A DNA stretch of 64,000 nt, taken from positions 1,128-65,127 of the forward strand of contig JAPLGD010000072.1 in assembly GCA_026390345.1 (NCBI GenBank), read 5' to 3'. The notes beneath the pieces were generated by a model. It saw only the letters and a program-made list of their open reading frames with translations, made no database searches and was not told the DNA's origin. Shown here in pieces: positions 9,703 to 57,075 of this stretch. The stretch's first letter is position 1, and each line of letters begins with the position of its first letter. The position numbers were made by a program, and so were the translations under genes. The DNA is from Candidatus Bipolaricaulota bacterium. Its GTDB lineage: Bacteria > Bipolaricaulota > Bipolaricaulia > UBA7950 > UBA9294.

Positions 9703-12218
9703 TCCGTTTTGCGACGCCGCTCGCCCTTCTGGCGCTCCTCGCACTCGGGTTCCTCGTCGTCGGCGGCCGCAAGCGTCTGCGCGACGTCGCCCTTCCCGCC
9801 CTCGCCGCACTGGCCTTGATTGTGGCCCTGGCAGGCCCCGAGCTGCGCCGCGGCCTGCCCCCGGAGAACGTCATCGTCCTCCTCGATCGCTCTCCGAGCG
9901 TCGTGGCCACTCTCGAAGACGACGAGGTTCAGGATGCCGTGGCCGGCCTCCGCGCCGTGAATCCTGACAGACGGTTCGGGGCGGTCGCTTTCGCCTCTCG
10001 GGCGACGATCACCGATCCCCTCTCCGAGAATCCGAGTCCGCTCTCCGGGCTGCCGGAGGGCGCAAGCCTCGGGGCGCGAACCGACGTCGCGGCGGCCGTA
10101 AACCTTGCCCTCGCGGCGTCGCCCACAGGAGGTGCGAACCAGCTTGTGCTCGCCAGCGACGGCCGGATCACGGACGGTCTCCTTGAGGCCGTCACCGCGG
10201 CTCGTGCCGCGGGTGTGCCGATCTCCACACTTCCCCTCGGCCACACCGCAACGGCCGACACCTCCTTCACCCGCCTCGAGGTTCCCTCCCGAGTGCAGGT
10301 CGCGCGGCCGTTTCAGATCGTCGCGGGCGTCGAGTCTCCGTCGCCCGGAGAGGGAACGCTCCTCCTCTATCGCGACGGGGAGCTCGTCTCATCCACTCCT
10401 GTGTCCTTGAACAGCGGACTCTCCCGGTTTCGGATCGTCGACACGCTCACGGAAACCGGCACCCACACGTACCGCGTCGCGGTCAAGCGCTTGGGCGACC
10501 CGATCCCGGAGAATGACTCTCTCTCGGCCTTCGCGGAGAGCGAGACCCCTCCTCCCCTACTCATCGTCTCGCCCGAGGTTCCCAACACCCTCGCCGCCGT
10601 GCTCGCGGGGGCGCAGCGACCCTACGCGCTAAGCGCCGTCGTCCCCCCGCTCGAGGAGCTCGCCCACTACCGCGAGATCCTGATCACGGGTTTCCCCCTG
10701 GGCGAGCTCTCTCCTGGCGACATCCAGATTCTCCGATCCTTCGTCGCCGACCTCGGCGGAGGTCTCCTCGTCGCCGAGGGTGAAGCGGAGCTCCGCGGGG
10801 TGCGAAGCGGTGGGATCGAGGATCTTCTCCCCGTCTCGTACACGCTTCCTCAGCGAGCGGACCAGGCGAGTCTCGCCGTCGTCTACCTCCTCGACCGCTC
10901 GGCGAGCATGCTCGGGCACGCCGAAGGAGCTGCGAAAATCGACGTTGTGAAGGAGGCCGCGGCCGCCTGCGTCGGCCTCCTCGACCCGCAGGCCCTCGCC
11001 GGGATCATCGCGTTCGATCGGGAGTTCCGCTGGCTGCGACGCGTCGCCCCCGTCCTGGATGGCCGCGAGATCTACGAGTCGCTCCGGACTCTCGAAGCGA
11101 GCGGAGGAACCGACATCTACTACCCGACGGTCGCGGCTCTCGACGCCCTCGAACAGGTCTCGGCGCGAATCAAGCACATCCTTCTTCTCTCCGACGGGAA
11201 GACGGTCGACGAGGCTCGCGACTGGGGCGGACTCTTCGCTCGCTTGGAGGCCCAGTCCGACGTCCGCCTCTCCGCCATCGCCGTCGGCCCTCAGCCGAAC
11301 CTGTCGCTCCTCGACCGCCTGGCAAAGGCCGGTCGAGGAGAGCTCTACGTGGCGGCCGACTTCTCTCTCCTCCCGAAAGTATCGATGGAGGCCACCCAAC
11401 GCTTGTCGGAGAGCCGCTTCGTGACCGAGGAGACTTCCGTGTCTGGACCGCTCGTAGGCGGGGATCTGGGCGAGATCCCCCCACTCCAAGGACGCGCGCT
11501 GACGTACTCGCGGCCGACGGCCGAGGTCCTCCTCGCAGCAGGAACGGACCCGATCCTGGCTCGATGGCGACTCGGCCTGGGTAGGGCCGCCGTCCTGAAC
11601 ACCGATCTCGCAGGGATCTGGTCGCGCGACTGGCTCTCCTGGAGCCGTGCGCCTCTGCTTCTCGAAGCCCTCCTGGGGTGTGTGGAAGCCGGAACTTGGG
11701 TCGACCAGGGTCTTCAACCGTCCGTGGAGGTCGGGGAGTTCGGCATTCGCGTGTCCGTCGAGGCGCGGGAATCGGATGGGAGCTTCGCCGACTTCCTGCG
11801 CCTCGAGGCCGCTCTGCTCCCCGGCGGCACGGCCGCTCCGCTCGCACAGACGAGCGCCGGCCGATACGAGACGACGCTCCCCACACTCGCGGAGGGAGGG
11901 TACGCCCTCCGAGTGGTCGATCAGACACGAGGCCGAGTCGTCCTCCTCCCCTTCTCGGTTCCCTACCCGGAGGAGTACCGACACACGGGCGTCGACAAGG
12001 CAACCCTCCGAACGATCGCCCAGGCCACCGGCGGCCGGTTCCTCGTGGGAGAGCAGGTTCTCCCCGAGTCGCCTAGCGCACTAGCCCAATCCTTCGTTCC
12101 CGTCCACCGCCAAGTCCTGCTCCTTGCCCTCGCTCTCTTTCTTCTCGAACTCGTTCGGCGGAAGCTGCCTCGTCGACTTGCGAAGCCGGCGCCGCGGACG
12201 GGCCGCTCCGCTTCTTGA
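9699..12218 (+). CDS. Tandem VWA-domain protein with a BatA-like double-transmembrane N-terminus and a C-terminal transmembrane anchor.
   Basis: GTG start overlaps the upstream stop (GTGA). N-terminus IRFATPLALLALLALGFLVVGGRKR. Two MIDAS-type motifs (VLLDRSPSV and VYLLDRSASM). The C-terminus has LLLALALFLLELVRRKLPRR. Confidence 0.75.
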   Translation: MIRFATPLALLALLALGFLVVGGRKRLRDVALPALAALALIVALAGPELRRGLPPENVIVLLDRSPSVVATLEDDEVQDAVAGLRAVNPDRRFGAVAFASRATITDPLSENPSPLSGLPEGASLGARTDVAAAVNLALAASPTGGANQLVLASDGRITDGLLEAVTAARAAGVPISTLPLGHTATADTSFTRLEVPSRVQVARPFQIVAGVESPSPGEGTLLLYRDGELVSSTPVSLNSGLSRFRIVDTLTETGTHTYRVAVKRLGDPIPENDSLSAFAESETPPPLLIVSPEVPNTLAAVLAGAQRPYALSAVVPPLEELAHYREILITGFPLGELSPGDIQILRSFVADLGGGLLVAEGEAELRGVRSGGIEDLLPVSYTLPQRADQASLAVVYLLDRSASMLGHAEGAAKIDVVKEAAAACVGLLDPQALAGIIAFDREFRWLRRVAPVLDGREIYESLRTLEASGGTDIYYPTVAALDALEQVSARIKHILLLSDGKTVDEARDWGGLFARLEAQSDVRLSAIAVGPQPNLSLLDRLAKAGRGELYVAADFSLLPKVSMEATQRLSESRFVTEETSVSGPLVGGDLGEIPPLQGRALTYSRPTAEVLLAAGTDPILARWRLGLGRAAVLNTDLAGIWSRDWLSWSRAPLLLEALLGCVEAGTWVDQGLQPSVEVGEFGIRVSVEARESDGSFADFLRLEAALLPGGTAAPLAQTSAGRYETTLPTLAEGGYALRVVDQTRGRVVLLPFSVPYPEEYRHTGVDKATLRTIAQATGGRFLVGEQVLPESPSALAQSFVPVHRQVLLLALALFLLELVRRKLPRRLAKPAPRTGRSAS

Positions 12219-20705: not shown

Positions 20706-21806
20706 TCAGTCATCTTCACGCCCTCTTGCCTGCCGAGCTGGATTCGGCGGCACCTGCCCGGGTACCGAGCGTCCGGGTTCGCTGGCACCGGGTACAAGCG
20801 TCGATCCAAGGAGAAACCCGTCCCTCAATGGATCGTCGGAGTCGATCACGAACTCGTGACGCCCGGTCACGAAGGCGCGGCCCGAGATCTCAGGAACGAC
20901 CGCCGCGTGGTCACCGACCTGGGTCTCCTCGACGAGGCGACCGGTGAGCGTGGTGCCGATCAGGCTCTCGTGAACGAACGGCTCGTCGAGGTCGACCTCG
21001 CCCCGCGCGTAGAGGATCGCTAGACGAGCCGCCGTCCCGGTGCCACATGCGGATCGGTCGATCGCACCCGGCGGGATGACGACGGCGTTGCGGCCGGAGA
21101 CGTCGGGGTTGTCCGAGGGGGCGGTGAACTGAACGTGGGTGATCTCGTCGACCCACGCGAACTCGGGGTGGTGAACGAGAAGCTGCCGCCTCGCCGCCTC
21201 CCGCACGGCAATCCCCACCCGGACAATGTCGGAAGCGGAACTCGGAACGAGCCGCAGGCCGAAGCACTTCGCATCGACCGAGACGTACACGTTGCCACCG
21301 TACGCGACATCGACGTCCACCCTGCCGAAGCCGGGAATGTCGACCGGCGTGTCGAGCGTGAAGACGAACGCAGGGACCGAGCGGAACGAGACCCGCACGG
21401 CTCCTCCATGGTCGATGAGAACCCGAGCCGTGACGAGTCCGCCGGGCGTGTCGAGAACGACGGAAGTCTCTCCCGAGCCTCGAATCAGGCCGGCCTCGAC
21501 CAAGGCCGTGCAGCACCCGATCGTGTCGTGCCCGCACATCGGCAAGTACCCGCCGACCTCGACAAAGACGGCGCCGAAGTCCGCGTCGTGGCGACAGGGT
21601 TCCGTCAGCACGACGGCGGACATGACGCTGTTCCCCCGCGGCTCGTACACGAGGGCGGTGCGAATCCAGTCCATGTGCCTGCGAAGGTACAGAGCGCGCT
21701 CTGCAATGCTGTCGCCGGGAATCGCGGGCAGCCCTGAAAGGATCGTGCGCGTCGGCTCACCGCCGGTATGGGTGTCGATCGCTACGATGCGCTGTGTGTG
21801 AGCCAC
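20706..21806 (-). CDS. Proline racemase-family enzyme, Cys/Cys type (4-hydroxyproline epimerase or proline racemase).
   Basis: N-terminus VAIDTHTGGEPTR. First catalytic Cys in MCGHDTIG, second in DRSACGTGTAA. There is an apparent C-terminal extension of about 30 residues beyond the family end (DPLRDGFLLG). Confidence 0.8.
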   Translation of the reverse strand: MAHTQRIVAIDTHTGGEPTRTILSGLPAIPGDSIAERALYLRRHMDWIRTALVYEPRGNSVMSAVVLTEPCRHDADFGAVFVEVGGYLPMCGHDTIGCCTALVEAGLIRGSGETSVVLDTPGGLVTARVLIDHGGAVRVSFRSVPAFVFTLDTPVDIPGFGRVDVDVAYGGNVYVSVDAKCFGLRLVPSSASDIVRVGIAVREAARRQLLVHHPEFAWVDEITHVQFTAPSDNPDVSGRNAVVIPPGAIDRSACGTGTAARLAILYARGEVDLDEPFVHESLIGTTLTGRLVEETQVGDHAAVVPEISGRAFVTGRHEFVIDSDDPLRDGFLLGSTLVPGASEPGRSVPGQVPPNPARQARGREDD

Positions 21807-21896
21807 GGTCTCCCTTTCACTGTTCCGATCGCGCTGACGAGACGGTAGAAGCGGCGCTCCGCCTTGTCAAGCATCTCGCCGGAACGAGCGTGCAGT

Positions 21897-21925
21897 TTGT
21901 CGGTATACGCCGTTTCACCTACACT
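21897..21925 (+). promoter_or_regulatory. Promoter TTGTCG-17nt-TACACT placed 8 nt upstream of the regulator ATG. This gives a leaderless or near-leaderless transcript.
   Basis: Hexamers at 21897-21902 and 21920-21925. The start codon at 21934 has no RBS upstream. Confidence 0.4.
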
Positions 21926-21933
21926 GCATCAAC

Positions 21934-22536
21934 ATGGAACCCGTAGGGCAGCTCATTCGCGACCTCCGTGCGGAGAAAGGATGGACGTTGAAGGAACTCG
22001 CATCGAAGTGCGAGCTCTCAACCAGCTTTCTCTCGCAGGTCGAGCGCGGCCTCTCCTCGGTGTCGATCACGTCTCTCCACGTCATCTGCCAGGCTCTCGG
22101 GATGACGCTGGGCGAGTTCTTCCACCAGCTCGGAGACGGTGTCGGGCAGCCCGAGACCGAAGGGCGAACGCTCGAGGTCATGAAGGCGAAAGACCAGCGG
22201 GCGATTAACCTGTCGGAGGCATCCATCAAGTACCGCTTTCTCAGCCGTGAGTTTCCCGGTCGGCAGTTCGAGATCATGCTCGGGGAAATCCCGTCGGGCT
22301 ACTTCTATCCGCCGTTCTCCCACGAAGGCGAGGAGTTCGGCTACGTCCTCGAAGGCCAACTGCGACTCACGATCGGCGACGATACCTACACCCTTGGCCC
22401 CGGAGACAGCTACCACTTTGCGGCGTCGACGCCCCATGGATACCAGGCGGAGGGCGACGCAGCCGTGCGGATCCTGTGGGTTCAGACCCTGAAGTACTTC
22501 CAGACCCGCGATGGCATCCCGGCCCAGCAGGAGTGA
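21934..22536 (+). CDS. XRE-family HTH transcriptional regulator with a C-terminal cupin domain.
   Basis: N-terminus LRAEKGWTLKELASKCELSTSFLSQVERG (HTH_XRE). C-terminal cupin (FSHEGEEFGYVLEGQL). It is a paralog of the regulator at 43039..44115. Confidence 0.8.
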   Translation: MEPVGQLIRDLRAEKGWTLKELASKCELSTSFLSQVERGLSSVSITSLHVICQALGMTLGEFFHQLGDGVGQPETEGRTLEVMKAKDQRAINLSEASIKYRFLSREFPGRQFEIMLGEIPSGYFYPPFSHEGEEFGYVLEGQLRLTIGDDTYTLGPGDSYHFAASTPHGYQAEGDAAVRILWVQTLKYFQTRDGIPAQQE

Positions 22537-23533
22537 CCCGTCGAAGCTTGCGGAGAGCTCGGCGGGCGGGCGCCTTCTCTACCTGTCAAGCCAGGACGTA
22601 GAGAGGGTCGGACTCACGGAATCCGAGGTCGTGGCGGAGATCGCTTCGCTGTTCGTAGAGAAGGCCGCCGGACGAGTCGAGGCGCCACCCAAGCTCGGAG
22701 TTCATCCAACAAGGGACTCATTCCTGCACGCGATGCCAGCGCACGTTCCGGGCCGTCGCGCGACGGGGATGAAGTGGATCGGCGCATTCCCTGAGAATCG
22801 AACCCACGGGGTCCCACAGATCAGCGGGGTCATCGTGATCAACGACGACGACACCGGTCTTCCTCTCGCCATCCTCGACGCGCGCTGGGTGACGGCGAAG
22901 CGAACCGCCGCCGCGTCCGCCCTCGCAGCGAGGCACTTGGCGCGCCCGGACGCATCCAAGGTGGGGATTCTCGGCTGCGGGGTGCAGGGCCGGAGCCATC
23001 TCGTGGCCCTGTGCGCCGAGTTCCGTATCGAGGAGGTCGTCGCGTACGATCCATCCGAGGAGGCGCGAACGCTCTACGCGGAGGAGATGCGCGAGCACAC
23101 GGGCGTACGCGTTTGCCCCTCGGCCGTGCCGCGCGACGCGGTGGAGGGGCGCGACGTGGTCGTGACCGCGGGGCCGATCGCGCGAACTCCCTATGCGACC
23201 ATCGAGGCCGGCTGGCTCCCGGAGGGTGCGTTCGCCGCGGCCGTCGACTACGCGTCCGCCTGGAGCGCTGGCGCACTCGCAACATTCGACCGGATCTACA
23301 CCGACGACATCCCGCAACTCGAGGCCCAACAACGGGAAGGCTACTTCCCTGACCTCCCCGCGCCTTACGCTGACCTGGGCCAGGTTGTGGTCGGCGCAAA
23401 GCGGGGCAGGACGACCGGGAAGGACCGGATCATGGCCTGCCTCCTCGGCCTCGCGGCCGAAGATGTCGTCGTCGGCCGCCTCGTCGCCGAGCGGGCTGTC
23501 GCGAAGGGAATCGGTACCTGGCTTCCGCTGTAG
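22511..23533 (+). CDS. Ornithine cyclodeaminase/mu-crystallin family NAD(P)-dependent enzyme, likely a delta1-pyrroline-2-carboxylate (or P5C) reductase.
   Basis: OCD-family pattern LYLSSQDVERVGL...GAFPENR...GILGCGVQGRSHL (Rossmann). It sits next to a Cys/Thr proline-racemase-family dehydratase. Confidence 0.7.
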   Translation: MASRPSRSDPSKLAESSAGGRLLYLSSQDVERVGLTESEVVAEIASLFVEKAAGRVEAPPKLGVHPTRDSFLHAMPAHVPGRRATGMKWIGAFPENRTHGVPQISGVIVINDDDTGLPLAILDARWVTAKRTAAASALAARHLARPDASKVGILGCGVQGRSHLVALCAEFRIEEVVAYDPSEEARTLYAEEMREHTGVRVCPSAVPRDAVEGRDVVVTAGPIARTPYATIEAGWLPEGAFAAAVDYASAWSAGALATFDRIYTDDIPQLEAQQREGYFPDLPAPYADLGQVVVGAKRGRTTGKDRIMACLLGLAAEDVVVGRLVAERAVAKGIGTWLPL

Positions 23534-23553
23534 GAGAGGCCGCGAGGAGGACT

Positions 23554-24615
23554 GTGAACGTGGAGCGAACGCTCGGAGAGCGAAGTCAGACGACGGAATG
23601 GCGCTCGCGCGAGGGGTGGCAAGCGTTTCGAACGGTCGACCTCCATGCAGCGGGCGAGCCGTTGCGCATCGTGACCGAGGGCTTTCCTGAGCTCCGCGGC
23701 GCGACGATGCTTGAGCGCCGACAGGATGCTCGAGCGCGCTGCGACGGGCTGCGGCGGATTCTCATGTGGGAGCCCCGCGGCCACGCCGACATGTATGGGT
23801 GTCTCGTCACTCCTCCTGCGACCGACGACGCGGACTTCGGCGTTCTCTTCATGCACAACGAGGGGTGGAGCACCATGTGCGGTCACGGCGTGATCGCCGT
23901 GACGACGGCGGCCATCGAGCTCGGATGGGTCGCCGCACAAGAACCTGAGACGACGGTGCGAATCGACGCCCCGGCGGGCCGAATCACGGCGGTGGCGCAC
24001 CTCGAGGTTGGACACGTCCGCGCGGTCCGGTTCCGCAACGTCCCGTCGTTCGTGCTCGCCTTGGATCAGGCGGTCGACGTTCCCGGGATCGGGCGCGTTC
24101 GATACGACCTCGCGTTCGGCGGTGCGTTCTACGCGTACGTGGACGCCGCGGACGTGGGACTCCGGTGCGCCCCCGAGGAGGTCGAGGCGTTGATCGTCGC
24201 AGGCCGCGCCATCAAGCACGCCGTCGTGGCTCAGCGCTCGATTCCGCATCCCCTCGACCCCGACCTAGGCTTCCTCTACGGCGTGATCCTCATCGCGCCG
24301 CCGCTCTCGGACGAAGCGGACAGCCGAAACGTCTGCGTCTTCGCGGACGGCGAGGTCGACCGAAGCCCGACCGGCACCGGGGTAAGCGGCCGGCTGGCGC
24401 TGCACTACGCGCGCGGCGAATTGGAGCTGGGACAGCCATTGGTAATCGAGAGCATCCTCGGCACTCGCTTCACAGGCCGCGTCGCGGAGGAGACGACGTG
24501 TGGCGCGTTCGCGGCCGTGGTCCCGGAGGTCGAGGGCACGGCACACATCACCGGCTACCACACGTTCGTCGTCGATCCCGACGACCCGCTCCGGGCGGGG
24601 TTTCTCGTGCGGTAG
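23554..24615 (+). CDS. Proline racemase-family enzyme, Cys/Thr type, predicted trans-3-hydroxy-L-proline dehydratase.
   Basis: DLHAAGEPLRIVTEG. First catalytic Cys in MCGHGVIA. The second catalytic position is Thr (DRSPTGTGVS), the hallmark of characterised T3LHyp dehydratases. Confidence 0.75.
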   Translation: MNVERTLGERSQTTEWRSREGWQAFRTVDLHAAGEPLRIVTEGFPELRGATMLERRQDARARCDGLRRILMWEPRGHADMYGCLVTPPATDDADFGVLFMHNEGWSTMCGHGVIAVTTAAIELGWVAAQEPETTVRIDAPAGRITAVAHLEVGHVRAVRFRNVPSFVLALDQAVDVPGIGRVRYDLAFGGAFYAYVDAADVGLRCAPEEVEALIVAGRAIKHAVVAQRSIPHPLDPDLGFLYGVILIAPPLSDEADSRNVCVFADGEVDRSPTGTGVSGRLALHYARGELELGQPLVIESILGTRFTGRVAEETTCGAFAAVVPEVEGTAHITGYHTFVVDPDDPLRAGFLVR

Positions 24616-24644
24616 CCCGGCGAGGCTCTTCCTCCGCTAGCACG

Positions 24645-27011
24645 CTACGCCTCGCTGTGCGCGGTGCGGGCGATGACCTCCTCCTGCAACGCCCGGTCGA
24701 GGGCGTGGAAGTAGTCGCTGTACCCGGCCACTCGAACGATCAGGTCTCGGTACTCCTCCGGGTTCTCCTGCGCACGCCTCAACGTGGCGGTATCGACGAC
24801 GTTGAATTGGATGTGGTGGCCATCGTACCGGAAGTACGTCCTCACGATCGCCGCCACCTTCCGCAGCCCCTCCTCGTCCTTGAGGACGTCAGGAAGGAAT
24901 CGCTGGTTGAGGAGAGTGCCCCCCGTGCGGACGTGGTCGATCTTCCCCACGGAGCGAATGACGGCCGTCGGTCCGTGCGTGTCGGCCCCCTGCGTCGGCG
25001 AGATCCCGTCGGACAGTGGAATCCCGGCGCGGCGGCCGTTCGGTGTGGCACCGACCTTCTCACCAAAGAAGACGTGGACCGTGGTCGGCAGGAGGTTGAC
25101 GCGGTGCGCGCCGCCCTTCGTGTTCGGCCGCCCGTCGATGGCATCGAAGTACGCGTCGAAGATCCGCCGCGCGATGTCGTCGGCGCGGTCGTCGTCGTTG
25201 CCGAAGAACGGGGTCTCGTGCACGAGCAGGTTACGCTCGGCGTCGTGCCCCGCGAAGTCAGCCGCGAGGACTCGAAGCAGGCGGTCCATCGAGAAAGACT
25301 TGCGCACGAACACGTGCTCGCGGATCGCCGAGAGGGAGTCGGTCGCTGTCCCCATCCCGACCCCCTGGATGTACGTCGACTTGTACCGCGGACCCGAGCC
25401 GTTGTAGTCCTGGCCCTTCTCGATGCAGTCGTCGACGAGCACCGAGATGAACGGAGCGGGCATGTGCTCGGCGAAGATTCGCTCAATGCGACCGTTGCCC
25501 TCGACCTTGACGTCCACGAAGTGGCGAAGCTGCTTCTCGAACGCGTCGAAGACCTGCTCGAAGCTCTCGAACGTGCGCGGGTCGCCCGTGCTCGGCCCGA
25601 TCCGACGGCCGCTATTTGGGTCGACGCCGTCGTGGAGCGCCAGCTCGAGGAGCTTCGGCCAGTTCATGTAGCCGGTCAGAATGCAGCTCTCCTTGCCGAA
25701 CGCGCTGATCTCGACGCAGCCGCTCGGCCCGCCGGAGCGGGCGTCACGTAGGCTCTTTCCGACGCGCAGGAACTCCTGCACGATCGCGTCCGTGTTGAAG
25801 ATCGACGGCTGGCCGAACCCCTTCCGAATCACCTCGAGGGTCCGGAGCAGGAATCGGTCAGGGCTCTTCTTTGAGAGCTGCACGCACGATCCGGTGTACG
25901 GGAGCCGCATCTCCTCGATCACGTCAAGCACGAGGTAGGACAGCTCGTTGACGGCGTCGGCTCCGTCCGGGGTCACGCCTCCGACGTTGATCAGGGTGAA
26001 GTCGTTGTACGTCGCGCTCTGCTCTTCCGTCACGCCGACCTTCGGGGGTGCTGGTTGGTTCGAGAACTTCACCCAGAAGCACTCGAGCAGCTCCTTCGCG
26101 CCGTCCCGGGTCAGCCGGCCTGCGTCGACGTCCCGCCGGTAGAACGGGTACAGGTTCACGTCGAGACGTCCCGGGTTGTAGGAGTCCCACTCGTTCAGCT
26201 CGGTGACGACGCCCAAGTGGACGAACCAGTACATCTGCAACGCCTCGCGGAACGTCCGCGGAGCGTGGGCCGGTACCCACGAGCAGATCTCGGCAATCTC
26301 GAGCAGCTCGGCGCGGCGCGCTGGGGTCTTCGCCTCGCCTGCCATGCGCCGCGCGAGATCGGCGTACCGCCCGACAAGTCGGATGAGCGCGTCGCAGACG
26401 ATTTCCATCGCGTCGAGTTCGTCGACCCGCGCCGCGCGGTCCGCAACGTCGGAGGTTCGGAAGCGGTCCCGTGCTTCGGCAATCCGTGCCTTGAAGTCGA
26501 GGAAGCCATGGCGATAGATCTTGTCGTCGAGGATTGCGTGGCCTGGCGCCCGCTGCTCCATGAACTCCGTGAACACCCCCGCGTCGAACGCCGCGTGCCA
26601 GTCTTCGGACATCGCCGCGAACACCCGCTCGCGGAGGCTCTTTCCTTTCCAGAAGGGGATGATCCTCGACTCGTACAGCGTCTTCGTCGCGTCATCCACG
26701 AGGAACGGCGTCTTCCGGCGGGTCGAGAGGACCCGAAGATCCTCGAGCGAGTGGCAGCACAATTCGGGGTATGTCGACGTCGCGCGGGGCCGCGGGCCCC
26801 TCTCGCCAACGATCAGCTCGTCGTCCCCGATGTAGATCGTTTCGTTCTCGAGGATGTAGCGGAATCCCCGTGCGCGATGGACAGGAACGGACTCGCGTAG
26901 GGTCGCACTCTCGCGCTCGAAGCGCGTCAGGAGTTCCGCGCGTTCGCCGCTCACGCTCGGGCGGGTCGTCACGCATTCGGTTCGCAACCGCTCCACTCTC
27001 TCGTTCATCAT
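24645..27011 (-). CDS. Glycyl radical enzyme of the dehydratase/eliminase class, most similar in architecture to trans-4-hydroxy-L-proline dehydratase (HypD).
   Basis: 788 residues. C-terminal glycyl radical motif IVRVAGYSDYF. Active-site Cys loop GCVE (GGPSGCVEISAFG) as in HypD, CutC and glycerol dehydratase. PFL-like fold length. Confidence 0.85.
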   Translation of the reverse strand: MMNERVERLRTECVTTRPSVSGERAELLTRFERESATLRESVPVHRARGFRYILENETIYIGDDELIVGERGPRPRATSTYPELCCHSLEDLRVLSTRRKTPFLVDDATKTLYESRIIPFWKGKSLRERVFAAMSEDWHAAFDAGVFTEFMEQRAPGHAILDDKIYRHGFLDFKARIAEARDRFRTSDVADRAARVDELDAMEIVCDALIRLVGRYADLARRMAGEAKTPARRAELLEIAEICSWVPAHAPRTFREALQMYWFVHLGVVTELNEWDSYNPGRLDVNLYPFYRRDVDAGRLTRDGAKELLECFWVKFSNQPAPPKVGVTEEQSATYNDFTLINVGGVTPDGADAVNELSYLVLDVIEEMRLPYTGSCVQLSKKSPDRFLLRTLEVIRKGFGQPSIFNTDAIVQEFLRVGKSLRDARSGGPSGCVEISAFGKESCILTGYMNWPKLLELALHDGVDPNSGRRIGPSTGDPRTFESFEQVFDAFEKQLRHFVDVKVEGNGRIERIFAEHMPAPFISVLVDDCIEKGQDYNGSGPRYKSTYIQGVGMGTATDSLSAIREHVFVRKSFSMDRLLRVLAADFAGHDAERNLLVHETPFFGNDDDRADDIARRIFDAYFDAIDGRPNTKGGAHRVNLLPTTVHVFFGEKVGATPNGRRAGIPLSDGISPTQGADTHGPTAVIRSVGKIDHVRTGGTLLNQRFLPDVLKDEEGLRKVAAIVRTYFRYDGHHIQFNVVDTATLRRAQENPEEYRDLIVRVAGYSDYFHALDRALQEEVIARTAHSEA

Positions 27012-27012
27012 C

Positions 27013-27957
27013 CTATCCCCCTATCGTTACCGGCAAGCTCGTCGCAGCACGAACGGCCGCGACTGCGTCCTCGATCGTCTCTGGGTCGGATGGAAGCACG
27101 CCGGGAAGCTCATAGCGTCTCCCCAAGTGTGCGAACTTCCGCTCCCCCGCGGCGTGGTACGGGAGGATTTGCACGGCCTCCACGCCAGGAAGTCGCGAGA
27201 CGAACCGCCCGAGTTCCCTCAGGTCCCGCTCCGAATCGTTCACACCGGTGATCAACGGATACCGGATCCAGACGCGCTTCCCATCCTCCGACAGGCAGCG
27301 GAGGTTCGCGAGAATCGTCGCGTTCGAGACGCCCGTCCACCGACGGTGCCGCTCGTCATCGAGCAGCTTGATGTCGTACAGGAAGAGATCGGTGTGGGCC
27401 GCCACCGCAGCAAGGGCTGGCTCGGCGGCGAAACCGCATGTGTCGACCGCCGTGTGGATCCTGCGCTCCTGGCACGCCTGAAGAAGCTCCGCGGCAAACT
27501 CTGGTTGCGCGAGCGGCTCGCCCCCCGACAGCGTGACGCCTCCCCGCGACTGATCGTAGAAGAGCACGTCGCGGTCGATTTCGGAGAGGAGGTCGTCAAT
27601 CGTGCGCGTCGAGCCGACGATTGATCGTGCTCGAGGGACGCACGCTGCGACACAGGCGCCGCAGGCCGTGCAACGGGTCCGGTCGGTCTCGGGCTTTGCG
27701 GCGGTCGACGCACGGGCGATTGCCCCATGGGGGCACGCCGAGACGCACGCCCCGCAGGCGACGCACCGCTCGCCCCAGAAGAGGAGCTCCGGCCCTCGCT
27801 CCTGGCTCTCCGGGTTGTGGCACCACGCACAGCGCAGGGGACAGCCTTTCAGGAAGACCGTGGTGCGTACGCCCGGGCCGTCGTGGATGGCAAAGCGCTT
27901 GAGGTCGAAGATGGTCCCGGTTCTCGACGCCGTTACAGTGGCACTGCACGTTCTCAT
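27013..27957 (-). CDS. Glycyl radical enzyme activating enzyme (radical SAM, with additional ferredoxin-like Cys clusters).
   Basis: Trimmed to ATG 27957 (MRTCS...GTIFDLKRFAIHDGPGVRTTVFLKGCPLRCAWCHNPES). CxxxCxxC motif plus CVACGACVSACPHG and CTACGACVAAC inserts. The 120-codon upstream extension of the ORF is out-of-context read-through and was rejected. Confidence 0.85.
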   Translation of the reverse strand: MRTCSATVTASRTGTIFDLKRFAIHDGPGVRTTVFLKGCPLRCAWCHNPESQERGPELLFWGERCVACGACVSACPHGAIARASTAAKPETDRTRCTACGACVAACVPRARSIVGSTRTIDDLLSEIDRDVLFYDQSRGGVTLSGGEPLAQPEFAAELLQACQERRIHTAVDTCGFAAEPALAAVAAHTDLFLYDIKLLDDERHRRWTGVSNATILANLRCLSEDGKRVWIRYPLITGVNDSERDLRELGRFVSRLPGVEAVQILPYHAAGERKFAHLGRRYELPGVLPSDPETIEDAVAAVRAATSLPVTIGG

Positions 27958-28102: not shown

Positions 28103-29932
28103 CTAGGGCGTCGCCTTGGGAACCCTAGGCTTGGCTTTGGAAGCCTTGGGGTTCTCCTTGGAAGCCGTAGGGCTCCCCTCGGAACCCGCAGGGTTCCCTT
28201 TGGCCCGACGACGTTCGGTCGCACGGGCGTCGACGGCAAGGGCAAGGGGGTCTCCCGCGAGCACGACGCCGTAGACGCAGTCCGCTGCCTCACGGGACAC
28301 GTACCCGTTCTCGACATCGGCTCGGACCGCCTCCGGGGGACGCGTCATCGGATCGCCATAGCCGCCGCCCGTGCCCGTGATGAAGCGAACCAGGGTTCCG
28401 GCGGGCATGACTTCTCCGGACAAACGTCCGCGCCGGTCGATCCGGCCGTCGGGGTAGTAGACCTCAACACCGTTCGTGGACCCGTCGTGGCCGCCCGCGA
28501 ACCCCCACGGCGGGTACAGGTGGCGGCCGAAGCTCGCGGTCACCGACGCGCGTGAGTTCCGGATGCGGTAGTCCTTGACGATGCCGAGGCCGCCGCGCCG
28601 TGCCCCATGCCCGGCGTCCGCAGCGTGGAGCGCGAACTGTTCCACGAGAAGCGGGTAGCGCGTCTCGGCGACCTCGGCGGAGAGGATGTACGTCTCGCCG
28701 TCGTTCGTACAAACGAGGGCGCTCTCCCCGTCCTTTCCCGCGGCCGCGCCCCACCCCCCCGCGTTGGGCTCGACGGAGAAGAACCACTCCCCCGTCTCGT
28801 CGGAAATCCCGCTGACGGTGGTCCCGCAGACCGAGAGGAAGTGGCCGGCGGGGATCCGGTCTGGAAGCGCCGCCGCAAGCGCTCTCCAGATGACGTCCCC
28901 GGAGTAGGCGTCCGACTCCCAGTAGGTGCTGATCGGGGCCGGGCGTTTCGGATTGAACACCGTGTCCTCGGGCACCACGATCCGAAGGGGAGCGAAGAAG
29001 CCCTCGTTCGGCGCCGCGTGGGGCGAAAGCACGCTCTGGTACGCGAACTTCACCGTGCTGATCAGAACCGAAAGCGGGCAATTGATCGGCCCGGCGCACG
29101 TCTTGCCGGTCCCCGTGAAGTCGACGACGAACTCGTCGTCGCTGAGGGTGACGCGGACGTGCACGGGGACCGGATCACCTCCGAGGCCGTCGTCGTCAAT
29201 GAACTCCTCGGCTTCGTAGACGCCGTGAGGCAGAGACCGGAGCTCCGCAAGGGCGTGGCGCCGACCCTGGTCGATCGAGATCTCGATGGCCTCGAGCACC
29301 GCCTCGACGCCGAACTTGCCGCACAACTCGGCCACGCGCCGGGCCGCGACGTGGAGCGACGCCGCCTGAGCGCGCATGTCGCCGAGGGTCAGCTCGGGAG
29401 CTCGCACGTTGCGGGCCACCATCTCAACGATGTCCTCGACCTCCTCGCCGGCGGAGACGAGGCGGACAACGGGAAACTGGATCCCTTCCTGATAGATGTC
29501 GGTGGCGCTCGGGGACCAGCTCCCGGGGTCCTTGCCACCGACGTCGTTCCAGTGTGCCTTGCTCGCCGCGAACAGGACCAACTCGCCGTTGAAGAAGACG
29601 GGCGCGACGAGAACAACATCGTTCTGATGCGTGGCGCCGCCCATGTACGGATCGTTGGTCATGAACACATCGCCGGGCCGAATGCGCCCGCGGAACTTGG
29701 CGAGCACGTCGCGGACGGCGTCGGTCAGAACCCCAATGAACGGCGGGATGCCGTTCGCCTGGGCGACCATGCGGCCCGCGCGATCGACCACGGCGCACCC
29801 GTAGTCGAGGACCTCGTAGATGACGGAGCTCTTTGCGGTGCGTCCGAGCGCCACAAACATCTGCTCCGCCGCAGAGACGAGCGCCCGCTTGATGACTTCG
29901 ACGGTGAACAGATCGACGGAGCGCGCGGTCAT
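28103..29932 (-). CDS. Hydantoinase B/oxoprolinase family protein (HyuB-like subunit) with a Lys/Pro-rich C-terminal tail.
   Basis: Trimmed to the ATG overlapping the hyuA stop (ATGA). N-terminus MTARSVDLFTVEVIKRALVSAAEQMFVALGRTAKSSVIYEVLDYGCAVVD. The 489-codon upstream extension of the ORF was rejected. The tail is KGNPAGSEGSPTASKENPKASKAKPRVPKATP. Confidence 0.85.
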   Translation of the reverse strand: MTARSVDLFTVEVIKRALVSAAEQMFVALGRTAKSSVIYEVLDYGCAVVDRAGRMVAQANGIPPFIGVLTDAVRDVLAKFRGRIRPGDVFMTNDPYMGGATHQNDVVLVAPVFFNGELVLFAASKAHWNDVGGKDPGSWSPSATDIYQEGIQFPVVRLVSAGEEVEDIVEMVARNVRAPELTLGDMRAQAASLHVAARRVAELCGKFGVEAVLEAIEISIDQGRRHALAELRSLPHGVYEAEEFIDDDGLGGDPVPVHVRVTLSDDEFVVDFTGTGKTCAGPINCPLSVLISTVKFAYQSVLSPHAAPNEGFFAPLRIVVPEDTVFNPKRPAPISTYWESDAYSGDVIWRALAAALPDRIPAGHFLSVCGTTVSGISDETGEWFFSVEPNAGGWGAAAGKDGESALVCTNDGETYILSAEVAETRYPLLVEQFALHAADAGHGARRGGLGIVKDYRIRNSRASVTASFGRHLYPPWGFAGGHDGSTNGVEVYYPDGRIDRRGRLSGEVMPAGTLVRFITGTGGGYGDPMTRPPEAVRADVENGYVSREAADCVYGVVLAGDPLALAVDARATERRRAKGNPAGSEGSPTASKENPKASKAKPRVPKATP

Positions 29933-31977
29933 GGGGTGGCCTCCTCGACGAGGATCAGGTTGCCGAACCGGTCTCGCCGCACCGTCTGTCCCGGCAGAAC
30001 GACCGTCGTCGACGCCGGCTCCTCGATGACGGCGGGGCCCTCGATCGCACGATCGACAGGAATCCGGTCCCGTTCGAAGACGCGCGCGCTCACCCATCCA
30101 AGGCCCTCGTACTGCACCCGACGGTCCTTCTTCCGCGCCGCGGAGAGCGAGGTCGACCCGGCGTCGACCTCGCGCAGCGACGGCTTGCGCACCGTTCCCC
30201 AAGCGGCCACGTGGTAGTTGACGACCTCGACGGGATCGGCGAGCCGGAACGCGTACGCGCGCTCGTGCAGGGCGTGGAACCGCTCGAGGAGGCGGTCGAG
30301 GTCGTCGTCCTCGAGGATCGGAGTGAGGACGGCGTGCTCCTGCCCTGCGTACCGCAGATCCACGTACTGCTGCGCCCAGGCTCGCTCGACGACCACGCGT
30401 TCCTCGGCAAAGCTGCGCAGCGCCTCGGAGGTCAGATCGCCGATCTCGGAGCGCACGTGCTCCCACGTCGCAGGGTTGCACGGCGTCACGCGGGTCCGGA
30501 CGAAGTCCTGGCGCAAGTCGGTGAGGAGCATTCCCCACGCGGAGAACTGGCCCGGCGCGGCGGGGATGAGGATCGTGCCGACGTGGAGCTGCCGCGCGAG
30601 CGACGACGCGTGGAGTCCACCAGCGCCGCCGTAGGCGACCAAGGCGAAGTCGCGCGGGTCGTGTCCGCGCTCTACGGTGACACGCTCCAGCGCGGCCTGC
30701 ATGTTGGCGTTCACCAGGCGCAGAATTCCCATCGCCGCGTCGTCCTCGCCGAGACCGACCCGTTCGCCGAGTGACGCGACCGCGCGGCGGGCGCTCTCGC
30801 CGTTCAGCGTCATTCGCCCAGCCAGGAAGTAGTCGGCATCGAGTCGGCCGGCCAGGAGGTTCGCGTCCGTCACCGTGGGCAGGGTCCCCCCGCGGCCATA
30901 GCACGCAGGCCCGGGACTTGCCCCCGCGCTCCGCGGTCCGACGTGGAGCCCGCCTCCCTCGTCGAGCCACGCGATCGATCCCCCGCCGGCACCGACTTCG
31001 ACGATGTCGACGACGGGGATGCGAAGCGGATACCCGGCCCACGTCTGCGACCGCTCGAGGTGGTAGTCGGTCCGGATCGCAACCTCCCCGGACTCGATCA
31101 CGCTCACCTTGGCCGTGGTCCCCCCCATGTCGAACGCGATGCAGTTCTCCAAGCCCGCCTGCCGCGCCACGGCGGCCGCTCCGATGATTCCGCCGACCGG
31201 CCCCGACTCGACGAGGTGGATCGGCAGCCGCCGCGACCGGCCGAAGCTGCTCGTTCCCCCGTTCGACTGCATCGTCAGCATCGAGCCTCGCAGACCGCGA
31301 GCCTCGAGCTGCTCGGCCAACGAAGCGAGGTAGGCGTCCGCCACGGGGCGCACGTAGGCGTTGAGGACGGTGGTGTTCGTGCGCTCGTACTCCCGCCACT
31401 CGCGCGTCAGCTCGTGGGACGCCGACACCGGAATCCCCGGGCAGGCTTCCTCGAGAAGGCGCTTCGCGCGCGCCTCGTGCTCGACGTGCGCGTAGGCGTG
31501 GAGGAAGCAGACGGCGATCGCCTCAACGTCGCTGCGTTGGCACGCGGTGGCGACTTCGAGCACGTCCTCTTCGGAGAGCGGCTCGAGAACCTCGCCCTTC
31601 CACGTGACGCGCTCGCGGACCTCGAACCGCAGGGCCCGAGGTACGAACGGCGTGGGCTTGCGGTAGAGGAGGTTGTACATGTCCGTGCGGTTCGCGCGCT
31701 GGATCTCGAGGACGTCGCGAAAGCCCCGCGTGGTGACGAGGGCGACGCGGCACCCCGTCCGCTCGGTAAGCGCGTTGATGACCACGGTGGTCCCGTGGAC
31801 GAACTGGGAGACGTCGGCAAGATCCACGTTCCCTTGGGCAATCGCATCGAGGACGCCGTCGGCGAAGTTGCCGGGCGTCGTCAGCGTCTTTCCGAGGTCA
31901 AGCGCACCGGTTGACTCGTCCAGGGCGACCAGGTCGGTGAACGTGCCCCCGATGTCGACGGCGAGCCTCCGGCTCAC
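29929..31977 (-). CDS. Hydantoinase A/oxoprolinase family protein (HyuA-like subunit).
   Basis: N-terminus MSRRLAVDIGGTFTDLVALDE (ASKHA-fold glycine-rich motif). 682 residues. Its start overlaps the upstream ABC ATPase stop (ATGA). Confidence 0.85.
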   Translation of the reverse strand: MSRRLAVDIGGTFTDLVALDESTGALDLGKTLTTPGNFADGVLDAIAQGNVDLADVSQFVHGTTVVINALTERTGCRVALVTTRGFRDVLEIQRANRTDMYNLLYRKPTPFVPRALRFEVRERVTWKGEVLEPLSEEDVLEVATACQRSDVEAIAVCFLHAYAHVEHEARAKRLLEEACPGIPVSASHELTREWREYERTNTTVLNAYVRPVADAYLASLAEQLEARGLRGSMLTMQSNGGTSSFGRSRRLPIHLVESGPVGGIIGAAAVARQAGLENCIAFDMGGTTAKVSVIESGEVAIRTDYHLERSQTWAGYPLRIPVVDIVEVGAGGGSIAWLDEGGGLHVGPRSAGASPGPACYGRGGTLPTVTDANLLAGRLDADYFLAGRMTLNGESARRAVASLGERVGLGEDDAAMGILRLVNANMQAALERVTVERGHDPRDFALVAYGGAGGLHASSLARQLHVGTILIPAAPGQFSAWGMLLTDLRQDFVRTRVTPCNPATWEHVRSEIGDLTSEALRSFAEERVVVERAWAQQYVDLRYAGQEHAVLTPILEDDDLDRLLERFHALHERAYAFRLADPVEVVNYHVAAWGTVRKPSLREVDAGSTSLSAARKKDRRVQYEGLGWVSARVFERDRIPVDRAIEGPAVIEEPASTTVVLPGQTVRRDRFGNLILVEEATP

Positions 31978-37649: not shown

Positions 37650-38762
37650 TCAGTCAACGATCAAGAGCTCGTGAGTCACGGTCGTCATCGGCACGCCTCC
37701 CGACTCCGAGACCACGACGACGTCCTCGATGCGAACCCCGAAGCGTCCCGAGAGGTACACGCCCGGCTCGACGGAGAAGGCCATCCCGGGCTCGAGCAAC
37801 GTCTTGTTCCCCGCGACGATGTACGGGGGTTCGTGGATATCGAGGCCGATGCCGTGTCCCGTGCGGTGGATGAAGCGATCGCCCAATCCGGACGACGTCA
37901 GGAAGTCGCGCGCCACGCGGTCGATCTCCTCGGCCGGCACGCCTGGGCGCACGGCGTCCACGGCACGCTGCTGCGCTTCGCGAACCGCGTCGTAAACCGT
38001 TCGGACCTCGTTCGACGGCTCGCCGCATATGACGGTCCGGCTGATGTCCGAACGGTAGCCGCCCGTGCGGCACCCGTAGTCAAGAATGACCACATCGCCG
38101 CTTGCGATCCGCCGCCCCCCCGCCCGGTAGTGCGGCAGCGCCGCCGCCGGCCCCGATGCGACCAACGGGCTGAATGCCGTGTTGTCAGCCCCCGCGCTCC
38201 GCATCGCGTCCACCAGAACCGCGGCGATCTCGAGCTCCGTGCGTCCGACAAACGGCGTCTCGATGACCCTCCGGAACGCCTCGTCGGCGATCGCACCGGC
38301 TCGACGCAGGAGCTCCACTTCCTGGGCATCCTTTCTCATCCGGAGCTTGGCGAGGACCGGCGTCGCGCTCGAGAACGCGTGCTGGGGCAGCGCCTTCTGG
38401 CACGCGAGAAGGAACTCCGCCCAGAGAGACTCCTCGACCAGGACCGGTCCCGGCGATCGCGCGACATCCTTCAGTGCCGCCGCGAGGGCATCGTGAGAGC
38501 CCTCGTGGTCCGCCCACACGAAGTGCTTCGCGAACCCGGTGTCGGCCCGCACCTGCTCCGCGTAGAGTTCCGGGACCACGAAGGCCGGTTCGCCCTCCCG
38601 CGGAACCAGAACCACCAAGAGGCGCTCGCCCGGCTCGTCGGTGAACCCCGTCAGGTAGCGCATCGACGAGGACAGACCGACGATCAAGAGGCTTGCGGGG
38701 CTCTCCCCCAACTCACGTTGCACGGCGGACAGCCGCTCACCGTACGGCTTCACGTTGGTCAT
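37650..38762 (-). CDS. M24-family metallopeptidase (Xaa-Pro dipeptidase/aminopeptidase), third copy in the window.
   Basis: 370 residues. Motifs RTGHGIGLDIHEPPYI, FSVEPGVY, VRIEDVVVV. Its start overlaps the upstream stop. Confidence 0.8.
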   Translation of the reverse strand: MTNVKPYGERLSAVQRELGESPASLLIVGLSSSMRYLTGFTDEPGERLLVVLVPREGEPAFVVPELYAEQVRADTGFAKHFVWADHEGSHDALAAALKDVARSPGPVLVEESLWAEFLLACQKALPQHAFSSATPVLAKLRMRKDAQEVELLRRAGAIADEAFRRVIETPFVGRTELEIAAVLVDAMRSAGADNTAFSPLVASGPAAALPHYRAGGRRIASGDVVILDYGCRTGGYRSDISRTVICGEPSNEVRTVYDAVREAQQRAVDAVRPGVPAEEIDRVARDFLTSSGLGDRFIHRTGHGIGLDIHEPPYIVAGNKTLLEPGMAFSVEPGVYLSGRFGVRIEDVVVVSESGGVPMTTVTHELLIVD

Positions 38763-39247
38763 CTTGTCGACTTGCCTCCTCGGTCCGCACGACGCGGAGC
38801 GTCACTCTCCTGAACCCGCGTTACATGGATCGTTTCGATGCCGTGTTGCCAGATTCGAACGCCGATCTCGGCGATTTTCGGCCACTGATCCTGTGACACG
38901 CGCGCGAAGACGTTGACCGGTAGGTTGCCGCGGTGGTCGCGGACGACTTCGGCGCCGTAGTACACAGAGAGCGCCTCGCTGGCACCCTCGGCCTTCTCCC
39001 ACTCGCGCCAGTAGATGACGTCCCCGGTATTCACGGTCGATGTGTCGTTCTCGCGCGGCGGCGCGGAACGCCCGAGCGCGACCGGGAAGTAGACCTCGCG
39101 CCCGCACCAACGCGTGTGGTAGGCCGTTGCCTCGAGCGGCAGGGCCGAGATAACCGCAGCGATCGTCCGTGGCGCGAGGTCGGGTAGAACATCGGCGACG
39201 AGCACTCCGCCGCGCTCGAACTCCAGCCGAATGCGCTCGACCGTCAC
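38759..39247 (-). CDS. Small (162 residue) conserved hypothetical protein embedded between hyuB and the M24 peptidase.
   Basis: ORF with 4-nt overlaps on both sides. No recognisable catalytic motif. It has an ordinary (non-artefactual) amino-acid composition. Confidence 0.5.
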   Translation of the reverse strand: MTVERIRLEFERGGVLVADVLPDLAPRTIAAVISALPLEATAYHTRWCGREVYFPVALGRSAPPRENDTSTVNTGDVIYWREWEKAEGASEALSVYYGAEVVRDHRGNLPVNVFARVSQDQWPKIAEIGVRIWQHGIETIHVTRVQESDAPRRADRGGKSTR

Positions 39248-56511: not shown

Positions 56512-57075
56512 ATGAGAGCGTTCTTCTCTCTGCCCGTTGACGGGGCACTTCGCATGCAGATCGGTCGAGTCGCGGAGCGGCTGCGCCGCGAGACGACCAT
56601 GCCGGCCTCGTGGGTCCGACCCGACAACTACCACGTCACGCTTCGCTTTCTCGGGGAGATCGACCCGGACCTCACCGTGCCCCTCGAGAAGGCCGCGCGC
56701 GGGATCGCCCGGGGATTCGCTCCGTTCACGCTCCGCGTCGACACGCTCGGCGCATTTCCGTCGATCGACCGCGCGAGGGTCTTGTGGGTCGGCGCGACGG
56801 CGGATCAGGCGTTTGGCGATTTTGCCGGGGCTCTCGAGCAACAGCTTCACGGGCTGGGATTCGCGCCCGAGCGCTCCGAGGCCATCGCCCACGTCACGAT
56901 GGCGCGACTCAAGGGACGCCCCGACGCCCGCCTCCCTCGCGTTTTCGAGGCGCTCGGCCCCTTCCCGCCTCACTCGCTTCGCATCGATCGTCTTGTCCTC
57001 ATGGAGAGCCGTCTCTCCCCGCACGGGCCAACGTACGATCCGCTCTTCTCCGTCCCGCTTCGCACGGAGGAGTAG
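56512..57075 (+). CDS. thpR: RNA 2',3'-cyclic phosphodiesterase (2H phosphoesterase, LigT/ThpR).
   Basis: Two H-x-T-x motifs (YHVTLRFLGE and AHVTMARLKG). 187 residues. RBS AAGGGGGAG. Confidence 0.8.
   Translation: MRAFFSLPVDGALRMQIGRVAERLRRETTMPASWVRPDNYHVTLRFLGEIDPDLTVPLEKAARGIARGFAPFTLRVDTLGAFPSIDRARVLWVGATADQAFGDFAGALEQQLHGLGFAPERSEAIAHVTMARLKGRPDARLPRVFEALGPFPPHSLRIDRLVLMESRLSPHGPTYDPLFSVPLRTEE

Follow-up and report, generated by a model that had tools for sequence, protein, structure and literature searches.

The locus

We analysed the window, a 64,000-nucleotide stretch of a Candidatus Bipolaricaulota contig (JAPLGD010000072.1), and concentrate here on three adjacent genes at positions 21934-24615. 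They encode a transcriptional regulator, a protein of the ornithine cyclodeaminase (OCD)/mu-crystallin family and a proline-racemase-family (PRAC) protein with a Cys/Thr catalytic pair. The unit is likely a three-gene operon that salvages trans-3-hydroxy-L-proline (t3Hyp), an amino acid of collagen, to L-proline; the PRAC protein would act as t3Hyp dehydratase and the OCD-family protein as delta1-pyrroline-2-carboxylate (Pyr2C) reductase (Table 1).

The reading frames of both enzymes (22511-23533 and 23554-24615) were found on the same strand. They are separated by a 20-nucleotide (nt) gap, with AGGAGG placed 5 nt ahead of the GTG start of the PRAC gene. The 3′ end of the regulator gene overlaps the start of the OCD gene by 26 nt. 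A terminator scan of 21700-24800 revealed no terminator-like hairpin between the OCD and PRAC genes; the one hairpin it returned lies inside the 3′ end of the PRAC gene and is not above chance expectation. The gene for the glycyl radical enzyme HypD is convergent with the PRAC gene, at a distance of 29 nt.

Table 1. Features of the unit and of its surroundings in the window
Feature	Position	Strand	Size	Basis
OCD/mu-crystallin-family NAD(H) oxidoreductase, predicted Pyr2C reductase	22511..23533	+	340 aa	PF02423
Cys/Thr PRAC protein, predicted t3Hyp dehydratase	23554..24615	+	353 aa	PF05544
XRE-HTH + cupin transcriptional regulator, gene 1 of three-gene unit	21934..22536	+		HTH_3 + Cupin_2
Conserved promoter-like element TTGTCG-N17-TACACT, including invariant TTTCACCTACACT	21897..21925	+		alignment of orthologous upstream regions
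Cys/Cys PRAC paralog, divergently transcribed, epimerase/racemase-type	20706..21806	-	366 aa	PF05544
Glycyl radical enzyme HypD, trans-4-hydroxy-L-proline dehydratase	24645..27011	-		NF043068
HypD-activating radical SAM enzyme, from Met at 27957	27013..27957	-	314 aa	TIGR02494
Two hydantoinase/oxoprolinase B+A pairs	28103-31977 and 39244-43241	-		NCBIfam best = caprolactamase
DUF3830/cyclophilin-like gene	38759-39247			
Protein with right-handed beta-helix/NosD repeats, at least 3 PKD domains and C-terminal caspase (Peptidase_C14)	52081-57024	-	1647 aa	

The promoter-like element upstream of the regulator was located by comparing orthologous loci. Its TTTCACCTACACT block does not vary among the window and six relatives (L003, L083, L085, L086, L087 and L089), while the flanks do. 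Across these loci the block takes the form TTG(A/T)-N17-TTTCACCTACACT and ends 8 nt ahead of the regulator ATG. The element matches 8 of the 12 sigma-70 consensus positions, which explains why a generic sigma-70 scan of 21700-24800 missed it and called no promoter there. Its sequence and position suggest a promoter giving a leaderless or near-leaderless transcript.

The window genes recur unchanged and in the same order on two Logan contigs. At NCBI an identical OCD protein (100%) from a Candidatus Bipolaricaulota metagenome-assembled genome (MAG) is labelled ‘ornithine cyclodeaminase family protein’, and the PRAC protein is MCX6094617.1 (Candidatus Bipolaricaulota), labelled ‘proline racemase family protein’. 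The present assignments refine both generic labels to a specific two-step pathway. The NCBI gene model of the OCD protein has 294 amino acids (aa), the conserved N-terminal 46 residues being cut off.

The Cys/Thr protein

The Cys/Thr protein matches the Pro_racemase family (PF05544; 380.6 bits, E 7.6e-114, residues 28-350) and carries the motifs STMCGHG and VDRSPTGTG. Its catalytic columns were placed by HMMER and MAFFT alignments. The solved sequences were rebuilt from the HMMER alignments, chain-to-native offsets were checked, and the numbering was matched to that published (PMC9309405, PMC4364671). Cys109 and Thr273 share columns with Cys104 and Thr273 of human L3HYPDH and with Cys104 and Thr268 of the Thermococcus litoralis dehydratase. 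An earlier reading made from the sequence alone (the sequence-only reading) had put Cys (MCGHG) at the first catalytic position and Thr (DRSPTGTG) at the second, and the alignment with the human enzyme places Thr273 exactly there. Proline racemases and the Cys/Cys paralog of the window have Cys in both columns.

The correspondence extends to the ligand sites. Met108, Tyr193 and Thr275 are equivalent to T. litoralis Met103, Tyr188 and Thr270, and Asp79, Tyr81, Tyr242 and Arg270 to human Asp74, Tyr76, Tyr241 and Arg270. Gly243 corresponds to ‘site 4’ among the published ligand sites; the human equivalent of Tyr242-Gly243 is Tyr241-Gly242. The other active-site residues specific to the dehydratases (Tyr81, Tyr193, Tyr242-Gly243 and Thr275) are thus present, whereas the racemases and the Cys/Cys paralog deviate at the Tyr81 and Tyr242-Gly243 positions.

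Among solved structures the closest relatives are 6r76/6r77 (437.7 bits, E 3e-130), followed by 7qpo (317 bits), with proline racemases scoring at most 280 bits. The protein is 53.7% identical to the T. litoralis dehydratase, 49.5% to human L3HYPDH and 38-41% to proline racemases. Its top NCBIfam model is NF045511 (trans-3-hydroxy-L-proline, or T3LHyp, dehydratase), at 431 bits, which is 86 bits over ProR and 131 over HypE. The T. litoralis enzyme (OCC_00387) dehydrates T3LHyp, its Km being 0.29 mM (PMC4141209).

We also examined the 80 metagenomic relatives closest to it (58-79% identity). In 69 of them the motif is readable; all 69 are of the Thr type and none is Cys/Cys. The genes recurring around these 80 loci are hydroxyproline-related: OCD_Mu_crystall (12 loci), HypD (9-10), the DAO family (7), aconitase X (7), oligopeptide ATP-binding cassette (ABC) transporters (7), XRE-cupin regulators (6), M24 peptidases (5) and aldehyde dehydrogenases (5). 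Aconitase X is a cis-3-hydroxyproline dehydratase. Catalytic columns, ligand-site residues and closest solved relatives thus all favour the dehydratase role that the sequence-only reading had proposed, and we have high confidence in the prediction that the Cys/Thr protein is a dehydratase of trans-3-hydroxy-L-proline.

The OCD-family protein

The OCD protein matches OCD_Mu_crystall (PF02423; 192.7 bits, E 1e-56). A single-sequence search of the PDB gave 6t3e, the T. litoralis Pyr2C reductase (TlLhpI), at 152 bits, Archaeoglobus alanine dehydrogenase (AlaDH) at 138 and SbnB at 126. With a profile built from 28 family sequences the scores were 238 bits for 6t3e, 232 for 1omo, 201 for SbnB and 122 for Pseudomonas putida ornithine cyclodeaminase. 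An AlphaFold (AF2) model was obtained with a mean confidence (pLDDT) of 90.2, residues 1-17 being disordered and poorly conserved. In a Foldseek search with this model 6t3e ranked first (E 1e-33, TM 0.83-0.87), followed by 1omo and SbnB. We rejected naming the protein by homology alone: the T. litoralis Pyr2C reductase comes first by sequence, profile and fold, with AlaDH and SbnB almost tied.

The carboxylate-binding tetrad of TlLhpI (Arg39/Lys67/Arg110/Asp303) is found in the OCD protein as Arg55/Lys88/Arg131/Asp318. The dinucleotide motif is GCGVQG155-160, and the NAD-specifying Asp180 corresponds to Asp159 of TlLhpI. Tetrad, dinucleotide motif and Asp180 are invariant across the alignment of the OCD family. 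Asp180 makes NADH the likely cofactor.

The residues held responsible for ornithine cyclisation are Glu56, Asp228 and Lys232 of the P. putida enzyme, with Arg52/Asp219/Lys223 as their equivalents in AfAlaDH and Leu52/Val224/Ala228 in TlLhpI (PMC4141209). Using this mapping, we find His73/Ala248/Ser252 at the positions of the cyclodeaminase and AlaDH triads. Accordingly, the OCD protein is not a true cyclodeaminase, nor does it belong to the AfAlaDH type.

Gene context of the reductase

Conservation of the gene pair provides most of the evidence for the reductase. In six relatives (L083, L085, L086, L088, L089 and L094) a Cys/Thr PRAC gene (STMCGHG...VDRSPTGTG) follows the OCD gene immediately on the same strand. 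The OCD proteins of the PRAC-linked relatives are 54-81% identical to that of the window. The order regulator, OCD gene, Cys/Thr PRAC gene is kept in L083, L085, L086, L089, L094 and L003; in the last of these the contig ends within the PRAC gene that follows the OCD gene, and its motif is unread.

In a neighbour-joining tree the window OCD protein falls in one clade with those of L083, L085, L086, L089, L003 and L094. Every relative in this clade is followed directly by a PRAC gene, which is Cys/Thr in each case where the contig includes the motif. The clade is sister to a large family mostly unlinked to PRAC. The OCD protein of L088 (57% identity) branches within that sister family yet is linked to a Cys/Thr PRAC gene. 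A separate group of the tree comprises TlLhpI and three OCD genes linked to Cys/Thr PRAC genes (L110, L119 and L137). Since this group and the window clade are both PRAC-linked, at least two OCD lineages partner the Cys/Thr dehydratase clade. Our expectation that PRAC linkage would extend through the entire OCD subfamily was rejected; the linkage is seen in the window's clade and in L088.

The sister family, which shares 48-56% identity with the window protein, is found in Anaerolineae, Acidobacteriota, Desulfobacterales, Aminicenantes, Thorarchaeota and others. Its members (L004-L082; homolog at about 10001-10990 in most) have EGAFAslVDFDSYW replacing the motif GTHINAVGxDxxGK, and the family is without a characterised member.

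The unit is also kept in differing surroundings. One relative, from another Bipolaricaulis MAG (L083), is fully syntenic with the window. In two others (L085:13017-20345 and L086:5018-11946) regulator, OCD gene and dehydratase gene are kept, and HypD is replaced by a cis-4-D-hydroxyproline route. The replacement set consists of a Cys/Cys epimerase, ferredoxin and flavoprotein subunits, a DAO-family protein, a deaminase resembling dihydrodipicolinate synthase and an aldehyde:ferredoxin oxidoreductase. It resembles an oxygen-independent form of the path by which cis-4-D-hydroxyproline is turned into 2-oxoglutarate. As the unit is kept beside differing 4-hydroxyproline routes, the 3-hydroxyproline unit is a portable module.

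The partnership with more than one OCD lineage agrees with published work: experiments identified OCD-superfamily neighbours of t3Hyp dehydratases as Pyr2C reductases, with 16 assayed members and an activity distributed across four divergent OCD clusters, found through the neighbourhood signal (PMC4113996). OCD-type Pyr2C reductases have also been demonstrated in Azospirillum brasilense (PMC3958920) and T. litoralis (PMC4141209). The window OCD protein is probably a Pyr2C reductase too, on the basis mainly of gene context and less of homology; the sequence-only reading had fitted it to this step, and the gene pair kept in relatives is the chief point in its favour. The window enzyme apparently belongs to a further, uncharacterised OCD lineage with altered active-site motifs.

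Proposed pathway

From the genes present, their catalytic residues, their homology to characterised enzymes and the conserved pairing we infer substrates, cofactor choice, co-transcription and a physiological role for the unit as follows. Cys109 of the dehydratase would abstract the alpha-proton of t3Hyp. Thr273, in place of the second Cys, would bar reprotonation from the opposite face, so that the 3-hydroxyl would be eliminated instead. The enamine product would tautomerise to Pyr2C, which the OCD-family enzyme would reduce to L-proline, probably with NADH. Together with HypD, the unit would allow both hydroxyproline isomers from peptides to be channelled to proline in anoxic conditions.

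The pairing of a Cys/Thr dehydratase with an OCD-type reductase as a t3Hyp-to-L-proline module was the central proposal of the sequence-only reading, and residues, homology and the conserved pair all speak for it. The pathway itself (t3Hyp to Pyr2C to L-proline) is unchanged by our analysis, having been established since 2012-2014. The Cys/Thr signature is likewise already published, as are the occurrence of the pathway in mammals, bacteria and archaea and, since 2014, pairs made up of a t3Hyp dehydratase and an OCD-type reductase. What is modestly new is the uncharacterised OCD lineage as likely reductase, the recurrent juxtaposition of Cys/Thr and HypD genes in anaerobes, and the absence of proC from the island. 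If the OCD protein behaves in assays as predicted, it would add one more divergent OCD lineage of Pyr2C reductases and would aid annotation of the widespread sister family.

Alternative assignments

Several observations weigh against these assignments. The Cys/Thr protein stays under the equivalog cut-offs of its dehydratase models, with 431 bits against 540 for NF045511 and 234 against 550 for NF047722; the NF045511 shortfall is the reason why its NCBI label is merely that of the family. For the OCD protein, the profile scores of 6t3e and 1omo are nearly tied, and its identity of about 32% is alike for the Pyr2C reductase (TlLhpI, 31.8%), archaeal AlaDH and SbnB. The family-wide GTHIN motif becomes GAFAA, as in SbnB, and the cut-offs of the named Pyr2C reductase models are missed (79 bits of 400 for NF045512 (LhpI), 105 of 266 for PRK07340 and 102 of 322 for PRK06141). 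Gene context has its exceptions as well. There is no PRAC gene within 10 kb in 78 of 80 OCD-homolog genome loci, the two others being L003 and L088, so the wider OCD family is not dedicated to the t3Hyp pathway. Four relatives of the Cys/Thr gene (L092, L093, L095 and L098) stand next to HypD without any OCD gene, and the reductase therefore need not be encoded alongside. The generic label and the missed cut-off could suit a proline racemase or hydroxyproline 2-epimerase rather than a dehydratase, and some family members are promiscuous (PMC4113996). The two-base racemase mechanism, however, requires a second Cys where this protein has Thr, the cited characterised Cys/Thr enzymes are all dehydratases (PMC4141209, PMC3958920, PMC9309405), and the closest characterised homolog, at 54% identity, is a dehydratase. 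We consider a racemase or epimerase very improbable.

Two other identities have to be weighed for the OCD protein. One, that it is a true ornithine cyclodeaminase or an alanine dehydrogenase of archaeal type that makes proline or alanine independently of its neighbour, would accord with its NCBI label and with its top NCBIfam model by score, TIGR02371 (archaeal AlaDH). The score on this model is only 166 bits against a cut-off of 409, however, and that on PRK07589 (OCD) is 90 against 350; P. putida ornithine cyclodeaminase reaches 122 bits against the family profile where 6t3e reaches 238. The cyclodeaminase residues that the sequence-only reading had singled out as decisive were sought and are absent, both triads being replaced by His73/Ala248/Ser252 (PMC4141209), and we give this identity next to no weight. 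An easier one to entertain accepts the dehydratase and takes the OCD protein for a ketimine or amino-acid dehydrogenase of wider or other specificity, with Pyr2C at most one of its substrates. The candidate substrates would be ketimines formed from D-amino acids by DAO-type oxidases, pipecolate or opine-like compounds. The neighbours of the sister family point in this direction: instead of PRAC genes, its 80 loci have Liv-type ABC transporters for amino acids (12-18), EamA exporters (13) and, immediately downstream, a FAD oxidoreductase of the DAO family (12). The OCD protein is also equidistant from AlaDH and SbnB, and promiscuity is known from the T. litoralis enzyme, which also has AlaDH, N-methyl-alanine dehydrogenase and delta1-piperideine-2-carboxylate (Pip2C) activities (PMC4141209). 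Against this, the window's clade always has the Cys/Thr gene immediately downstream, under the same regulator. A DAO neighbour is, moreover, compatible with formation of Pyr2C from D-proline, and the sister family may also consist of Pyr2C reductases. We regard a broader dehydrogenase as unlikely, though credible, and retain the Pyr2C reductase assignment.

HypD and the missing proC

The neighbouring glycyl radical enzyme clears the NCBIfam equivalog cut-off for HypD (NF043068; 1167 bits against 1100). Among solved structures it scores 997 bits with 6vxc; the set comprising HplG, HpyG and HpzG gives 404 (HplG, 7vua), 458 (8id1) and 424 (8iof). These three were rejected as the identity of the enzyme, at 404-458 bits versus 997 for HypD. 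The activase scores 357 bits with TIGR02494, above the cut-off, and 353 with the HypD activase model, below its cut-off of 425. Its start at 27957 was chosen from a 314-aa ortholog in L083; the raw open reading frame (ORF) extends to 28317.

HypD and Cys/Thr genes meet repeatedly. Relatives of the Cys/Thr dehydratase adjoin HypD in about 10 of the 80 metagenome loci (L090-L095, L098, L107, L121 and L132). In L098 (4798-9032) activase, hypD and the Cys/Thr PRAC gene form a tight three-gene operon. In L092, L093 and L095 a regulator-PRAC pair faces hypD and the activase gene, with no OCD or proC gene nearby. In the open-access literature we found no paper treating 3-hydroxyproline together with a glycyl-radical hydroxyproline dehydratase, or Bipolaricaulota together with hydroxyproline.

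The product of HypD is delta1-pyrroline-5-carboxylate (P5C). P5C reductase (proC) or another reductase was sought throughout the 64 kb of the window and in the OCD-less HypD/PRAC loci L092 and L098; none turned up in any of them. One could suppose that the OCD clade is a cyclic-ketimine reductase for both dehydratases, acting on Pyr2C from the Cys/Thr enzyme and on P5C from HypD. Such a dual enzyme would account for the lack of proC beside HypD here, as well as for the repeated presence of Cys/Thr and hypD genes in one locus in anaerobes. We think a dual role quite doubtful.

The Cys/Cys paralog

The divergently transcribed paralog matches PF05544 (E 4e-111), and its motifs MCGHD and DRSACGTG place Cys91 and Cys254 in the catalytic columns. 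It passes no NCBIfam equivalog cut-off. Published ligand sites separate ProR from HypE by Phe versus Ser/Val at site 1, a HypE-specific His at site 4, and Phe versus Cys/Tyr at site 5 (PMC4364671). In the paralog Ser63 (site 1) and His224 (site 4) are HypE-like and Ile244 (site 5) is atypical. The sequence-only reading had called this Cys/Cys protein epimerase/racemase-like, and the aligned cysteines and two of the three sites agree with it. Judged by these residues the paralog is probably a hydroxyproline 2-epimerase. It is plausible that it supplies HypD with trans-4-hydroxy-L-proline made from cis-4-hydroxy-D-proline. In L085 a PRAC1-type gene stands beside a separate epimerase-like gene, and the role of the paralog may therefore differ.

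The paralog is unusual in other respects. It has DRSACGTG for DRSPCGTG and PRGNSVMS for PRGHxDM(F/Y); Asn-Ser-Val thus stands where the family usually has His-x-Asp, and the conserved His and salt-bridge Asp are lost. It also carries a 30-residue C-terminal tail rich in Pro, Gly and Arg. The atypical Cys/Cys variant recurs in L083 and L085.

The surrounding island

The unit is embedded in an island of roughly 30 kb, which spans about 12 to 44 kb of the window. It encodes HypD with the activase, both PRAC proteins and the OCD protein, and in addition three oligopeptide ABC systems, the same number of M24 peptidases of Xaa-Pro type, a DUF3830 protein, and two each of XRE-cupin regulators and hydantoinase/oxoprolinase A/B pairs. 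We predict from this gene content that the island, a compact one, lets the uncultured Bipolaricaulota lineage use collagen-type peptides anaerobically and covers both 3- and 4-hydroxyproline.

For the hydantoinase/oxoprolinase pairs, caprolactamase is the top NCBIfam model, with a score far under its cut-off. The first pair belongs to the same minus-strand gene string as HypD, the activase and a peptide ABC system, and is kept in L083. Its hydantoinase B raw ORF (28103-31399) is over-extended at the 5′ end, the likely start being 29932. The second pair adjoins an M24 peptidase and the DUF3830/cyclophilin-like gene.

Comparison with known systems

The closest parallel is the T. litoralis cluster (TlLhpH, 6R76/6R77; TlLhpI, 6T3E; TlProR, 6J7C; PMC4141209, PMC4364671), which contains the same enzyme trio as the window: in both, a Cys/Thr dehydratase, an OCD/CRYM-family reductase and a Cys/Cys paralog are clustered. 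Each window protein has its T. litoralis counterpart as best or near-best solved relative, and the active-site residues of the dehydratases are identical. The window reductase differs from TlLhpI in belonging to another OCD lineage, at about 32% identity, with His/Ala/Ser for Leu/Val/Ala at the triad-equivalent positions and GAFAA for GTHIN. The T. litoralis cluster has L-proline dehydrogenases, whereas the window island has the glycyl-radical HypD, prolidases and peptide transporters.

The same two-step pathway and neighbourhood logic apply to LhpH/LhpI of A. brasilense (PMC3958920) and to the pairs of t3Hyp dehydratase (t3HypD) with an OCD-superfamily or MLD2-type reductase (PMC4113996). On the NCBIfam models of the named bacterial Pyr2C reductase families the window OCD protein scores just 79-105 bits, and the host also differs from those of the bacterial LhpH/LhpI pairs in being an uncultured anaerobe of Candidatus Bipolaricaulota.

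In human L3HYPDH (C14orf149, 7QPO; 49.5% identity) Cys104/Thr273 correspond to Cys109/Thr273 of the window enzyme, and Asp74, Tyr76, Tyr192, Tyr241 and Arg270 are all kept. The human enzyme has been described with Cys137 as a regulatory disulphide partner (PMC9309405). Its T273C variant gains epimerase activity. The human L3HYPDH and mu-crystallin/ketimine reductase genes are unlinked, whereas the window pair is adjacent.

Clostridial hypD loci usually carry proC (PMC6219649), in contrast to the 64-kb window, where none was found. The window HypD is, in addition, flanked by the t3Hyp dehydratase/OCD unit and a hydantoinase/oxoprolinase A/B pair, unlike its clostridial counterpart. HypD and its activase are common to the clostridial hypD-activase-proC locus (PMC6219649) and the window, and both loci would serve the anaerobic conversion of hydroxyproline to proline.

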